Assembly (NCBI GenBank): GCA_964010765.1
Contig: CAXGMD010000044.1
Span: 1-28,243 of the forward strand
Source of the DNA: an uncultured bacterium
Lineage (GTDB): Bacteria; SAR324; NAC60-12
Direction: 5' to 3'
DNA length: 28,243 nt
The position numbers were made by a program. Positions 15,001 to 18,982 of this stretch are shown piece by piece; the first letter of the stretch is position 1, and each line of letters opens with the position of its first letter.

Positions 15001-18000
15001 CGCCAAGTTCATCTCCCATTTTGAGAGATCGCTCAATATTCGTGGGAGAACCAACTTGCAGCATCCCAAGATTTGATCGATCTAAGGTTTCCTGAATTAC
15101 ATCGAATTCTGCCCATTCTCCTTCCTGGAAATTCACAACAGTGAGGCACACACCAGACACTGCTACACTTGCCCCTAATTCTAAGCAAGTGCTCCATTCG
15201 TTCATCTGAATGCGCAGCTTTAGCCCACCGCTGACCTGCTTTGAGAATAGGATCTCTCCTTTGCCCTGAACAATTCCTGTAAACAATTCAGCCTTTTTCG
15301 GTGTGTGTGTAAACACCGTCCCAGTCGCCAGGGGGAGGCTCACTGATGAAGCGTTCACAACGCTCGATGTAAGTCAGGCAGGGCCCATCATTTTCGAGGT
15401 AGGTTAGGGCTTTGCGGAAGTGCTCAATAGCTATTGGGTAATCATGATCTTTATAGCATGAAAGACCCTTTTGATAATGCTCAAGAACATCTGTCATCGG
15501 GCCGCTGAGCTCATTCTTGAAGTCTAGGACCTCAAAAACTGGAACAGGCTCTTTCTTACCAACTACCCGAACAATGTCTAATTCTCTTGCATCCACATAA
15601 TTTTCGGTTCCTTCAAAATGATCTGTACCGTAGTAGGTGTTGCCTGAGATCATCGTGAAGGTTTTGTAGAACTTGTTTGCGCCTTCCAGACGTGCTGCCA
15701 AGTTAACTGTATCACCCATGATGGTGTAGTCCATCCTTTGCTGTGATCCCATGTTTCCGACCACGATGGGACCACTGTTGATCCCCATCCGTGCAAAGAG
15801 TTGGGGGCTACCTTTTTCTCGCCAGTCCTTACGCATTTCAATCAATCGCTTTTGCATGTCGATTGTGGCAAAACAGGCGAGTTTAGCGTGATCCGGTTGA
15901 TCCAAGGGAGCTCCCCAAAAAGCAATGATTGCATCCCCTTCAAACTTGTCTATCGTGCCAGCCCTACTGGAGATAAGATTACACATCTCGGTGAGGTATT
16001 CATTGAGTAGCGCAACCAGTTCTTCAGGCGTAAGACTCTCGGAGATCGTCGAGAACTTCTGAACATCTGAGAAGTAAGCAGTCATTTCACGACGTTCACC
16101 ACCCAAACTGAGTTTTGAAGGATCCTTGACGATTACATCAATCACGCTGGGGGAAAGGTACTGAGAGAAAGCGTTCTTGATGAAGGCTTTTTGCTGTCTC
16201 TCCGCAATGAACAAGAAGAAGTTTGTCGCAATCATGCTGAGAATCATTGCTGGGATGATGTAACTCATTGAGAGTACATAGCCATGATAGACGTAAGCAT
16301 AGATGCAGATTACCAGGTATCCAATGATTGCCGCAAGAAAGAGCGGGTTGTGAAGCTTTTCAAGCCTTGCAATGAACAAGAACAACAACATCATGCAGAT
16401 GAGAATCATTGCTTCTATTTCATTACTTGCTGGATGAATAGGAGCACCATTCATCATCGTCCAGATCGTATCGGCTAGGATTTCAATCCCATAAATTTCC
16501 CCAACTGGTGTTGAAAAAATATCGTGAGACACTTCAGTTGTGTCTCCAACAAGCACTAGTTTATCTTTAACCCAATATTCCAACTCATAGATCTCATCTT
16601 CATCGAGATCTTCCAGACCGTAAATCTCGCCCTCATAAAGATTCAAGACCATGGCGGCGGTGATACCAGCATATTCATGGAGAAAAGTAACACCCGGTTT
16701 GTGAAGCGGGTAATCCAGCCAAAGATCGCCATTTTGGTCCAGTGGGATTTCCTTATCTCCAATGTAGAGAATGTTGTTCTCCAGTCTTGGTTCAACATTC
16801 CAATACATGGCCAGTGCTTGAACTGCCCACGGCCACATCTTGAATTCATTGACAGCCTGATCGTAGAAACGAAGTCGGGAGAGCCGATTACCTATTAATG
16901 TGTGATTGGTATAACCAGCAACAGTAGCCTCCTGTAGAACAGGAGTTGCCGTTGTCACTCCACGGATTTCTTCATCTACAAGGTTCAATTGACCAACTAC
17001 CATTGTGTTTGGTTTCTCACCAAGCGCTTCTGCCAAGATGGGGTCTTCACCGTAGCCATTTGGAAAATCCATCAGCATATCAAGTGCAACGACCTTGGCA
17101 CCCAGTTCCTGAAGGTTGGTGACGATTTCAGCGATGTGTTTTCGTTGCAGAGGCCAACTTCCATATTCGGTGAAGAATTCTTCATCGGTATCAACAATCA
17201 CCATATCCTTTTCAGGAAAGGCATAAGCTTCAGGATTTGCAGTATGTCTTAGGATATGACGATAACCCTGCAGTTGATTTTCTGATCCTGAAAATATCTC
17301 GTATTGCTCAGCAGGAATCATGGCTAAGAAAAGCAGGATTATGATCCAATAATCTGGTCGGAGGAGTGACTTTTTCATGGAATTGTTCTGCGTTTTGGTG
17401 GGAGAGGAGGGCATCTAGAGAAGATGCCCGAAGTTGGTGAGTATTTTTTGTCTAGAGGTTTGCTTGGTATGTCTCGGTTACTTCTTCCTGCAGGGCTTGA
17501 AGTTTTAAACGAGCATAAACCTCGATCATAAAAGGTCTCAGATCGTTGATGTCATCATCATCACTATTCTGGCTGAAGAAGGATTCGTAGGTTTGCATGG
17601 CTGGGACGAGAAGTCCGTGCTCCTTCAGGACGCCTGCCATCATAAAACCATCAGTATCGTATTTCTTGACAGCTGTCACATCCTCTTGGAATTTTTTTAA
17701 TTTCTTACCACTGAGCCAGGAAAGTCTCCTCGTTTTACTCTCACTTAGAACCTTGCCATCTTTGAGGACATTTACGCTATATTTCATTGATCTCTCCGAA
17801 AATGGCTCAATCTTCTGAAGAACAACTTTCTCTGAAGTCGCTGCAACATCATATGAGTTATCACCAACATTTAAGCGATACGAATATTCAGAGCCTTTGC
17901 TCTCCCAAGCAACAGTGGGGTAGTCATCAGAGAGAGATATGTTGCCCAAGTCCACGATCAACTCCTGACCTGGTTTGTTGGCGGAGCGACGAACTGTCGT

Positions 18001-18982
18001 ATACTTTTGAGTAGTTGCAAATTGCTTATCTAAGCCAGCTAACAGCTCACCTGCTGCTTCCGTGGAACCTAGTTCACCACTGACTAATTCCATCCCTGAA
18101 TCGGTAATCTTGATTTCAGAACTGGCCAGTAGGTTTGTTGTTTCCTGCGTAACCTGATTTGCAAATTTTGCCTTGCTTCCATCATTTAGACGAACCATGG
18201 AACCAGGAAACACGAGCTTGTTTCGACGGACGGGCTTCCAGCGCTTCCCATTTTTGCTGTATTCAACCTTCCCATCGACGTCATAGATCATGCCCACTGG
18301 GACTCTATCTGCCTGCACTAAGGGTACGACCAAGAAGGAGACCAAGGCGAGTAGGAGCAAAGAACGCATGATTTTCATAGCCATCTCCTGAAGAATTTTA
18401 AGGGATTCATCAGAAATCTTGATCTAAAAGATTTCTTTTGGGTGTAAAGAGCCTTATCGACTCACTAACTGGACAAAATTAATAGCTAGTATAGGATTCA
18501 AGAAGTGACAACACAAATCCCTGTCACTTTGCTGCAACAGCCTGGGTTGAAAGCATTGAAAAGAAATATGAAATTGGGCATTTTAAAATCATTTCAACAA
18601 AGAAAGTTGGATTTGCAGCACAAATTGAACACGGAAGGTTGATCGTTGACTTTGTTACAAAATTTTCCTTGGCTCTGTTTGTTACTTGGCGGTAGTCTAG
18701 GGAGTTTAAGTAGATGGTGGATCAGTCGGCAGTTGCAAATTTGGTTGGGAGATCAATTTCCGTACGGAACAATTTTTGTGAATGCTGTGGGCTCTGCTGC
18801 TTTTGGAGTTTTTGTCGTTCTGCTGGAAAAGCACTCTGGGGCTAGACTACTCCTTCTAAGTGGTTTCATGGGTGCCTTTACTACTTTCTCGACATTTAGT
18901 TATGAGACTGTCCTCCTGATGCAGGCTGGTGCCTGGCGCACGGCGCTACTGAATATTTGCCTGAATTTATTTGTAAGCTTGA

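Follow-up and report, generated by a model that had tools for sequence, protein, structure and literature searches.

What does the 'magnetotaxis' protein MtxA do, and with which partners, in an uncultured SAR324 bacterium (NAC60-12; GenBank assembly GCA_964010765.1), where its gene lies beside that of a CHASE2 receptor cyclase? The window analyzed is the whole 28,243-nucleotide stretch of contig CAXGMD010000044.1. A first-pass annotation had taken MtxA for a general periplasmic co-sensor of CHASE2 receptors, unrelated to magnetotaxis, and had considered this reading new. Neither the mtxA-CHASE2 pair nor its independence from magnetotaxis is new: the adjacency, two non-magnetic mtxA carriers, a deletion mutant resembling the wild type and a proposed periplasmic sensor or interaction role are already given in the available text of PMC4439547. 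What the host locus contributes is the dispersed form of a three-part module, and two features had been missed, an exported TPR-CHAT protease as third member and an invariant arginine linker in MtxA. The co-inheritance of the known pair with the protease suggests a switch under protease control, and not a role in magnetotaxis.

Gene and protein features

The mtxA and cyclase genes are intact and real (Table 1). Translation of mtxA starts at the ATG at 18378, with AGGAG 6 nt upstream (an alternative ATG at 18384 is directly abutted by AGGAG). The product carries DUF7354 (residues 25-110, E 1.6e-22), MtxA_IG-like (146-222) and MtxA_C (225-304) at 79.6, 69.2 and 57.2 bits (cut-offs 31.4, 26 and 27), and residues 25-304 match the M. 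gryphiswaldense MtxA 4Z29 (MGR_0208) with E 2.2e-47, so that the earlier domain assignment stands. The predicted model (pLDDT 86.6) superimposes on 4z29_B with Z 19.3 and rmsd 1.6 over 165 residues; a whole-model Foldseek search returned 4Z29 plus generic Ig-type folds only. The hydrophobic leader at residues 1-26 would direct MtxA to the periplasm, and a 24-residue signal is reported for MSR-1 MtxA in the available text of PMC4439547.

Table 1. Features of the mtxA-cyclase locus and of the unlinked protease gene
Feature	Position	Strand	Basis or remark
mtxA orthologue, 308 aa, predicted to be exported	17452..18378	-	domain matches, 4Z29 similarity
Probable signal peptide, about residues 1-24	18307..18378	-	hydropathy peak 1-26; likeness to MSR-1 MtxA
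N-terminal beta domain (DUF7354)	18049..18306	-	resembles start of FecR-family proteins and LapA-type retention domain
Linker motif YTTVRR|S (126-132), R131 candidate P1 residue	17983..18003	-	conservation, model
Ig-like (146-222) and TPR-like (225-304) domains, DUF928-related	17467..17943	-	Pfam, fold, profile match
CHASE2 - membrane segments - class III cyclase - TPR protein, 708 aa	15288..17414	-	Pfam, hydropathy
Periplasmic CHASE2 domain, mtx-type subfamily	16380..17318	-	very acidic; residues 36-333 have a net charge of -34
Cyclase domain with D450, D494, K490, T564, N571, R575	15621..16088	-	motif positions
Riboflavin synthase gene, directly downstream of cyclase, then pstSCAB-phoU	14666..15286	-	bystander neighbourhood
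Exported TPR-CHAT (caspase/separase-fold) cysteine protease	G000:C33:26594-30298	-	other contig than mtxA pair

The N-terminal domain structurally matches 5IX9 (MpIBP RIN) with Z 9.1 and rmsd 3.1 over 75 of 76 residues. Its profile matched seven proteins, the five scanned all being of the FecR family, with sequence likeness over about 70 residues. Two distant relatives show weak, sub-cutoff matches to retention_LapA, and the distant relative P0208 scores 18.7 bits with FecR (cut-off 24). FecR (PF04773) has no listed Pfam match in MtxA itself and is absent among the 25 of 36 families listed for 41 homologues; the best 50 fold matches of the MtxA model include no solved FecR-type domain. A single-sequence model of the N domain alone (pLDDT 61, best fold-search Z 3.9) was poor and uninformative.

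On profile evidence, DUF928 proteins are distant relatives of MtxA, which aligns with a DUF928-scoring protein over 260 columns (probability 98.6, E 1e-15). The relation is transitive, via P0214 (DUF928 28.6 bits, cut-off 26), and DUF928 (PF06051) has no direct Pfam match in MtxA. Searches of plasmids and phages gave no MtxA match, hence no sign of a mobile element. In the anti-phage collections PADLOC and Pycsar, MtxA has no match and the cyclase matches PycC models solely through the common catalytic domain.

The linker motif is the best-conserved six-residue window of MtxA among 83 representatives, and YTTVRRS is identical in 4Z29. R131 is present in 72 of the 83 and absent in 11; the residue after it is S, G, N or A in 73. 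In the predicted model the linker is mostly coil, with pLDDT below 50 at 131-136. Three of four SAR324 DUF928 proteins carry a G-G/A-G-x-R-G/S motif.

The cyclase gene starts 37 nt after the mtxA stop and is the sole CHASE2 gene found in the host genome; that the two genes are neighbours on the same strand had been noted before. Its product has CHASE2 at residues 33-345 and Guanylate_cyc at 443-598, with a weak TPR at the C terminus; three segments within 329-405 are strongly hydrophobic. The catalytic set, in which we take D450 and D494 to serve the metal, K490 and T564 the adenine and N571 and R575 the transition state, is that of a full class III adenylyl cyclase, predicting ATP-to-cAMP activity. 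No solved relative of the host CHASE2 was found by sequence search.

The riboflavin synthase/pstSCAB-phoU neighbourhood occurs only in the closest relatives, and a riboflavin or phosphate-uptake link was therefore rejected. No TPR or Sel1-type third gene stands beside the pair in the host. A promoter and terminator scan stayed at chance level (6 found vs 7.3 expected, and 5 vs 4.2). Four metatranscriptome runs (4 of 23 listed) have contigs over parts of both genes, among them one that spans the junction (17345-17759), such contigs being blind to strand, level and single transcript and possibly of DNA origin.

The host TPR-CHAT protein (CHAT E 2e-70) has an N-terminal hydrophobic leader, HIATHG and LSAC motifs and an intact His-Cys pair (H1062, C1144), and is 38.5-45% identical over about 1000-1200 aa to 18 of 18 tested mtxA-linked proteases. 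Two motifs of its CHAT domain hold conserved acids, L-P-G-A-x-x-E in 19 of 20 and W-x-V-x-D in 20 of 20, which may belong to an Arg-specific S1 pocket. A sequence search found no solved relative of the domain. Separases cut after Arg in unstructured motifs, but craspases cut after Met or Leu (PMC11506125), which leaves Arg specificity of the host protease putative.

Linkage and co-inheritance

The three orthologues are co-inherited regardless of gene neighbourhood. Profile search found MtxA in 52 of 88 SAR324 genomes, somewhat above the earlier count of 42-44 of 87. With orthologue cut-offs (1e-60, 1e-50) chosen after seeing the score gap, MtxA and the mtx-type cyclase occur together in 46 of the 88 (MtxA only 6, cyclase only 1, neither 35), and MtxA and the protease in 45 (MtxA only 7, protease only 2, neither 34). 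All three are present in 41 and none in 34. Among 45 MtxA genomes outside SAR324, 43 have the protease. The SAR324 co-occurrence, drawn from related genomes, may just reflect few gains and losses. Pairwise identities of MtxA follow those of CHASE2 (rho 0.70), a correlation that shared ancestry explains and that was given no weight.

CHASE2 is the next gene to mtxA, with mtxA directly upstream, in 47 of 80 loci; 28 are not adjacent and 5 are cut by contig ends. Within SAR324 the two genes are neighbours in 22 of the 46 genomes with both and unlinked in 24, mtxA being absent from 20 of 20 unlinked cyclase loci fetched. An adjacency of 83% (within two genes) reported before is not confirmed by these next-gene counts from our own samples. 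In 24 of the 80 loci mtxA has a TPR-CHAT gene within 8 kb; in 35 SAR324-type loci it has none. At three Magnetococcales loci mtxA adjoins the protease gene while the cyclase gene is at another place in the genome, and P0112 is a fusion of a caspase domain with MtxA. A parallel cassette, TPR-CHAT > CHASE2 cyclase > DUF928, is found at G049:C290; G049 (100% complete) has a divergent MtxA and neither the protease nor the cyclase orthologue. Genomes G068, G073, G077 and G078 hold more distant CHAT types only. In some Gammaproteobacteria a Ser/Thr kinase is nearby, which may be an alternative output to the cyclase. A general co-sensor role does not fit the distribution: CHASE2 proteins occur in 26 of 36 MtxA-negative SAR324 genomes, and in 25 of these 26 they belong to other types.

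Relation to magnetotaxis

The name and original description of MtxA speak for a magnetotaxis or magnetosome factor, here a relic or from an unassembled island, as do magnetochromes in 24 of 45 MtxA genomes outside SAR324. Against this, the magnetochrome family has 0 matches in the host genome in a profile search positive in two magnetotactic controls, and tblastn gave no host match for MamK, MamN and MamH of the control island; the sole match of MamB (35%) and MamM (29%) is a CDF transporter. The host genome, which is 92% complete and may have lost a contig, yielded no magnetosome cluster, and the earlier observation that the host has no annotated magnetosome genes is upheld. The phylum had also been called non-magnetotactic, which does not hold: magnetochrome clusters occur in 4 of 88 SAR324 genomes, and magnetosome clusters have been reported from SAR324 (PMC7602337). 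Of the MtxA-positive SAR324 genomes, 51 of 52 lack magnetochromes, three of the four magnetochrome-positive ones lack MtxA, and among the 45 other MtxA genomes 21 are without a magnetochrome match, which supports the independence of MtxA from magnetosomes. With the wild-type-like deletion mutant (available text of PMC4439547) also against it, the magnetotaxis-factor reading is largely refuted and we consider it extremely improbable. That the three-part system has nothing specific to magnetotaxis belongs to our best reading, which as a whole stands at an even chance.

Proposed mechanism and alternatives

In that reading, mtxA and the cyclase gene would be two thirds of a periplasm-to-cAMP switch, with TPR-CHAT as the remaining part. 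The protease would be activated by an envelope cue, probably through binding of a protein to its TPR array; it would then cleave MtxA after R131, so that the N-terminal beta domain, which is basic, and the Ig-TPR half come apart, and the CHASE2 subfamily would read cut versus uncut MtxA and alter cAMP output in either direction. We regard it as evenly balanced whether the TPR-CHAT protease cuts MtxA at R131 and the state of MtxA gates the CHASE2-subfamily cyclase, binding and cleavage both being inferred. The model draws on co-inheritance, linkage, the likeness of the host protease to the mtxA-linked ones, the P0112 fusion, the conserved Arg linker and the G049:C290 cassette, and on precedent in separase cleavage after Arg and in the periplasmic TPR-CHAT protein DdvA (PMC11506125). 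Against it stand the 11 of 83 representatives without R131, the 35 SAR324-type loci with no protease within 8 kb, the mtxA deletion without phenotype under standard conditions (available text of PMC4439547), G049 with neither orthologue, and G068, G073, G077 and G078 with distant CHAT only. Docking would explain the conserved basic motif just as well; the N half of MtxA is basic and CHASE2 is acidic. Complex prediction of CHASE2 (36-333) with MtxA (24-308) from 43-row alignments scored 0.00 twice with controls unfolded, and was counted neither way.

Such docking is the core of a reading that we hold unlikely, in which MtxA would be an uncut periplasmic co-receptor or adaptor whose basic helix and YTTVRR motif bind the CHASE2 subfamily, the protease acting on something else in the pathway. 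In its favour, mtxA directly precedes the cyclase gene in 47 of 80 loci, against 24 of 80 with a protease nearby; the charges are complementary (MtxA N half +5.6, CHASE2 -20; averages of 43 pairs); and CHASE2 kinases have FecR-domain partners, the available text of PMC5192318 naming no protease. However, the motif, in a coil modelled with low confidence, has a small residue after it, like a protease site, and the caspase-MtxA fusion and three protease-mtxA loci without a cyclase link MtxA directly to the protease. The co-receptor idea is that of the first-pass annotation, narrowed to one CHASE2 subfamily.

Separase is held by its inhibitor securin (PMC11506125), and MtxA may likewise be an inhibitor or pseudo-substrate whose Arg loop plugs the active site until displaced, the protease then cutting the CHASE2 receptor or another envelope protein. 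The motif and co-inheritance data fit here too, and the P0112 fusion would hold the inhibitor in cis; but the small residue after R131 in most members suits turnover, and mtxA adjoins the cyclase more often than the protease, leaving this, too, improbable.

LapD-LapG-LapA provides a precedent for inside-out control, LapG cleaving after the LapA-type retention domain. Applied here, the receptor would hold or free the protease, which would clip the retention-like N domain off MtxA as the output. The match to 5IX9, with helix and conserved motif following, agrees with this, but MtxA has a Sec-type leader and 308 aa without adhesin or type I secretion part, and on its cytoplasmic side the receptor carries an output domain, the intact cyclase; we rate it very improbable.

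For the protease switch, a further and tentative proposal, somewhat short of even, is that CHASE2 of the mtx type senses a proteolytic event rather than a small molecule: the exported caspase-like protease would cleave an MtxA/DUF928-family protein at a conserved Arg, with one fragment as receptor ligand and with swappable outputs.

Comparison with known systems

NsrA has FecR and TPR parts. In S. meliloti it relays a plant signal to CHASE2 cyclases (CyaD1, CyaD2, CyaK), which are thus activated via an envelope partner by a protein signal; it is an outer-membrane beta-barrel, with no protease named in the available text (PMC13001267), whereas MtxA is small and soluble. LysM-FecR proteins of Burkholderia and Pseudomonas are operon partners of CHASE2 histidine kinases, the gene of the exported FecR-like protein again lying directly upstream of the CHASE2 receptor gene, but with full FecR plus LysM and a kinase output (available text of PMC5192318); the likeness of MtxA is to their first 70 residues only, and MtxA goes on with helix, Arg linker, Ig and TPR. 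As far as the available text of these two papers goes, both precede MtxA, which had been put forward as the first CHASE2 partner.

The mtx cluster of Magnetospirillum and Magnetococcus (MGR_0208, 4Z29; PMC4439547, PMC5088516) has the same order, MtxA then CHASE2 cyclase, the same Ig plus TPR fold and the identical linker. It differs in that no magnetosome cluster was found in our host, whose TPR-CHAT gene is on a separate contig, and in having a Sel1-domain gene as third member, the protease being unnamed in the available text of both papers. Cyanobacterial DUF928 proteins beside CHASE2 (PMC5587647) share the homologous Ig-TPR half with an Arg-small motif upstream, and the three-gene logic at G049:C290 parallels the mtx module; the protein inspected lacks the N-terminal beta domain, and the function is undescribed. 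DdvA, a Myxococcus xanthus anti-sigma factor (PMC11506125), is likewise an extracytoplasmic TPR-CHAT protein with a His-Cys dyad and a proposed signal-triggered linker cut, but is membrane-anchored and frees a sigma factor, whereas the host has an apparently soluble protease, with a cyclase as output. The LapA-type retention domain (MpIBP RIN, 5IX9; PMC5550230) is also a small beta fold at a periplasmic N terminus, but MtxA has neither adhesin body nor type I secretion. Among the papers listed, none linking MtxA or CHASE2 to a CHAT protease was found, subscription journals being mostly outside the coverage. Recent work may have reported bacterial caspase-like proteases coupled to CHASE2 kinases.

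Significance

The signals of CHASE2 are described as unknown in the available text of PMC5192318, and MtxA, though its structure is solved, has lacked a function; our results point to a specific enzyme, substrate, residue and read-out. If the model is true, a misleading Pfam name, which invites false magnetotaxis calls in an abundant marine group, would be removed. On the further proposal that CHASE2 senses proteolysis, a protease in the periplasm would activate a second-messenger pathway whose outputs are swappable, important enough for open-ocean SAR324 bacteria to retain its three genes after the operon broke up.

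Gene features

The mtx pair in the window, both genes of which are intact, is a further member of the mtx cluster described in passages of PMC4439547 and PMC5088516. The third cluster member named in the latter is a Sel1 gene, whereas the third member proposed here is an exported-looking TPR-CHAT caspase-like protease, which the same genome encodes on contig C33.

Features of the mtx module and other genes mentioned in the text
Feature	Location	Strand	Description
mtxA	window, 17452-18378	minus	308 aa; DUF7354, MtxA_IG-like and MtxA_C all over Pfam cut-offs
CHASE2 cyclase	window, 15288-17414	minus	CHASE2, three hydrophobic segments, class III cyclase, weak TPR
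342-aa protein	window, 26469-27497	minus	No Pfam match; GAGGAG nucleotide-binding motif; in sugar-acid catabolism run; looks like a shikimate-dehydrogenase relative (candidate)
TPR-CHAT orthologue	own genome, C33, 26594-30298	minus	38.5-45% identity to all 18 linked proteins compared
Second CHAT protein (L087)	own genome (G000), C129, 1487-5089		Exported-looking; H-A-T-H-G and S-A-C motifs intact; ~30% like mtx-type protease, across C-terminal half alone
FecR-family match (L139)	own genome (G000), C4, 78851-79147		Interrupted by internal TAA stop
Metallo-beta-lactamase plus cNMP-binding protein	locus L057, 14880-16910		After TPR-CHAT gene; similar at 4 other loci; candidate cAMP effector or phosphodiesterase of module

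In sequence comparison the window MtxA matched 4Z29, the crystal structure of Magnetospirillum gryphiswaldense MtxA, with E 2.2e-47, and its model (pLDDT 86.6) superposes on that crystal with Z 19.3 and rmsd 1.6 over 165 residues. The cyclase frame starts 37 nt downstream of mtxA and carries D450, K490, D494, T564, N571 and R575 at the motif positions, a set that we take, from class III enzymes in general, to predict an active adenylyl cyclase. No other CHASE2 gene was found in its genome, where five cNMP-binding matches over four frames are possible read-outs. The C33 protease has a hydrophobic leader as well as H1062 and C1144 (export-type leaders of module proteins were judged by hydropathy or inspection); the CHAT protein on C129 is more distant. 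Ahead of the catalytic His, the CHAT insertion of the C33 protease holds a basic (K/R)RS stretch, found in 10 of 20 proteases and possibly a self-cleavage site.

Comparison of mtx loci and genomes

Among the best 80 of 196 related mtxA loci, the gene after mtxA encodes CHASE2 in 47, contig ends cut 5, and none lies nearby in 28; in 24 of the 80, mtxA has a TPR-CHAT gene (about 1100-1350 aa) no more than 8 kb away. TPR-CHAT directly adjoins mtxA at three Magnetococcales loci, with the cyclase elsewhere in the genome, and one compared protein (P0112) is a caspase domain fused to a whole MtxA.

Orthologues in the 88 SAR324 genomes were called with cut-offs picked after the scores had been seen: E <1e-60 to the window's domain for CHASE2 (3 weak-match genomes dropped) and best E <=1e-50 for the protease (6 weaker genomes dropped). 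MtxA occurs with the orthologous CHASE2 in 46 genomes and alone in 6 (five just 51-86% complete, one with a divergent MtxA), the cyclase alone in 1 and neither in 35. MtxA and the protease occur together in 45, MtxA alone in 7, the protease alone in 2 and neither in 34; all three orthologues are present in 41 and none in 34, counts that come from related genomes and so represent few independent events. The Pfam CHAT family is found in 50/52 MtxA-positive against 9/36 MtxA-negative SAR324 genomes, and outside SAR324 the protease accompanies MtxA in 43/45 genomes. The mtxA and cyclase genes adjoin in just 22 of the 46 genomes with both, three of them through a truncated mtxA copy; mtxA was absent within a few kb of the cyclase in all 20 fetched of the 24 unlinked cases.

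MtxA is tied to one CHASE2 subfamily. The first-pass annotation had read it as a general co-sensor of CHASE2 receptors, which is too wide because other CHASE2 types occur without it: 26/36 MtxA-negative SAR324 genomes carry CHASE2, 25 of them other types only. Around CHASE2 at four such loci nothing scored as MtxA-like or FecR-like; the neighbours scanned were SurA, FtsX-like and ABC proteins. Nor is MtxA the first CHASE2 partner, as had been claimed, since passages of PMC13001267 and PMC5192318 describe NsrA feeding CHASE2 cyclases in S. meliloti and LysM-FecR genes upstream of CHASE2 kinase genes, respectively.

Several loci show further arrangements. Upstream of mtxA, eight (L054, L064, L067, L077, L044, L047, L049, L078) carry another CHASE2 gene together with genes for PP2C and FHA proteins; TPR-CHAT lies between this CHASE2 and mtxA in four, and at L077 a protein kinase domain comes after this CHASE2. 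A single run at L151 (G045:C19) comprises TPR-CHAT, a 553-aa candidate two-partner-secretion outer-membrane protein and a CHASE2 cyclase; DUF928 also matches there, in an overlapping frame of the other strand. At L116 (G081:C17) a frameshift or assembly error divides the mtx-type cyclase between two frames that overlap (411 and 349 aa). Sister family f2 has CHASE2 in 18/19 genomes, lacks MtxA and rarely has CHAT; the top match in most of its genomes is a ~770-aa CHASE2 protein (L147-L149).

Relation to magnetosomes

The magnetochrome family gave 0 matches in the window's genome (92% complete) and likewise in two further mtxA carriers, against 9 and 12 in two magnetotactic controls. Of 14 ORFs common to the two control magnetosome islands, 8, including MamK, MamN and MamH, had no match in this 92% complete genome; the other 6 gave partial or 29-44% matches, the MamB and MamM queries both landing on one CDF transporter. 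The phylum had been called non-magnetotactic, a label contradicted by magnetochrome clusters in 4/88 SAR324 genomes and by the SAR324 magnetosome clusters reported in PMC7602337. MtxA is present in just 1 of those 4, and 51/52 MtxA-positive SAR324 genomes are without magnetochromes; among 45 non-SAR324 MtxA genomes (from the best 80 of 196 related loci, 35 SAR324-type loci omitted), 24 have magnetochromes and 21 showed none. By these counts, MtxA is independent of magnetosomes.

That MtxA is a magnetotaxis factor is thus exceedingly improbable. One sentence in the discussion of PMC4439547 calls it 'essential', against that paper's own deletion mutant, which resembles the wild type, and looks like a slip. 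The first-pass dismissal of a magnetotaxis role stands, although not as a novelty: the same paper, in the passages available, places two of five MtxA homologues in non-magnetic organisms and proposes a periplasmic sensor or interaction role. The headline claims of that annotation were mostly known or too wide.

MtxA architecture

The model of MtxA residues 25-116 matches 5IX9, the periplasmic retention domain of adhesin MpIBP (PMC5550230, in part), with Z 9.1 and rmsd 3.1 over 75/76 residues, and retention_LapA scores weakly in two distant MtxA relatives. A profile of the N-terminal domain matches FecR-family proteins over their first 70 residues; Pfam does not place MtxA in FecR. The Ig-TPR half is related to DUF928 by profile comparison: P0214, found by the MtxA profile at E 3e-12 and aligned along 260 columns (probability 98.6), passes the DUF928 cut-off. 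The Atlas has a DUF928-bearing cluster at 0.93, 22% of whose members carry DUF928. Two long proteins, P0213 (2671 aa) and P0196 (767 aa), match the MtxA profile repeatedly, each time over a short stretch; giant symbiosis proteins with MtxA-like C-terminal domains are described in part of bioRxiv 10.64898/2026.03.19.712371.

Conservation was computed over 83 full-length MtxA (the query and 82 of 145 new ids from a profile search). The best-conserved six-residue window is YTTVRR (126-131), between the two halves (0.70 vs median 0.40), and no polar residue is better conserved than R131 (72/83); the position after it holds S, G, N or A in 73/83. The region is modelled as coil, with pLDDT <50 at 131-136, and the linker is accessible, since trypsin cut MtxA of M. 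gryphiswaldense MSR-1 there (PMC4439547, in part). The cassette G049:C290, TPR-CHAT > CHASE2 cyclase > DUF928, repeats the protease-cyclase-MtxA logic with DUF928; 3/4 SAR324 DUF928 proteins carry G-G/A-G-x-R-G/S ahead of the Ig domain.

Proposed mechanism and significance

Observed are the co-inheritance of the three genes, export-type leaders, intact catalytic residues and a conserved Arg linker. We give about an even chance to a mechanism in which some cue would activate the TPR-CHAT protease, which would cleave MtxA on the C-terminal side of R131, a change to which the CHASE2 domain would respond. According to passages of PMC11506125, the cut made by separases follows an Arg within an unstructured motif, and DdvA provides a TPR-CHAT in the periplasm, but craspases cut after Met or Leu. 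In clan CD enzymes specific for Arg, the S1 residues used are acidic (PMC4626109, in part), and the TPR-CHAT family conserves two acidic motifs in its sequence. That MtxA is instead a co-receptor that stays uncut is unlikely, a role as an inhibitor is equally unlikely, and inside-out control is very unlikely.

Among the papers listed in literature searches, drawn mostly from outside subscription journals, none turned up that describes the link to the protease, the Arg motif, or the relations to DUF928 and the retention domain. New from the window are the dispersed form of the module and a phylum-wide test against magnetosome genes, and the corrected reading, with a proposed cleavage of MtxA upstream of CHASE2, makes the question of the CHASE2 signal directly testable.
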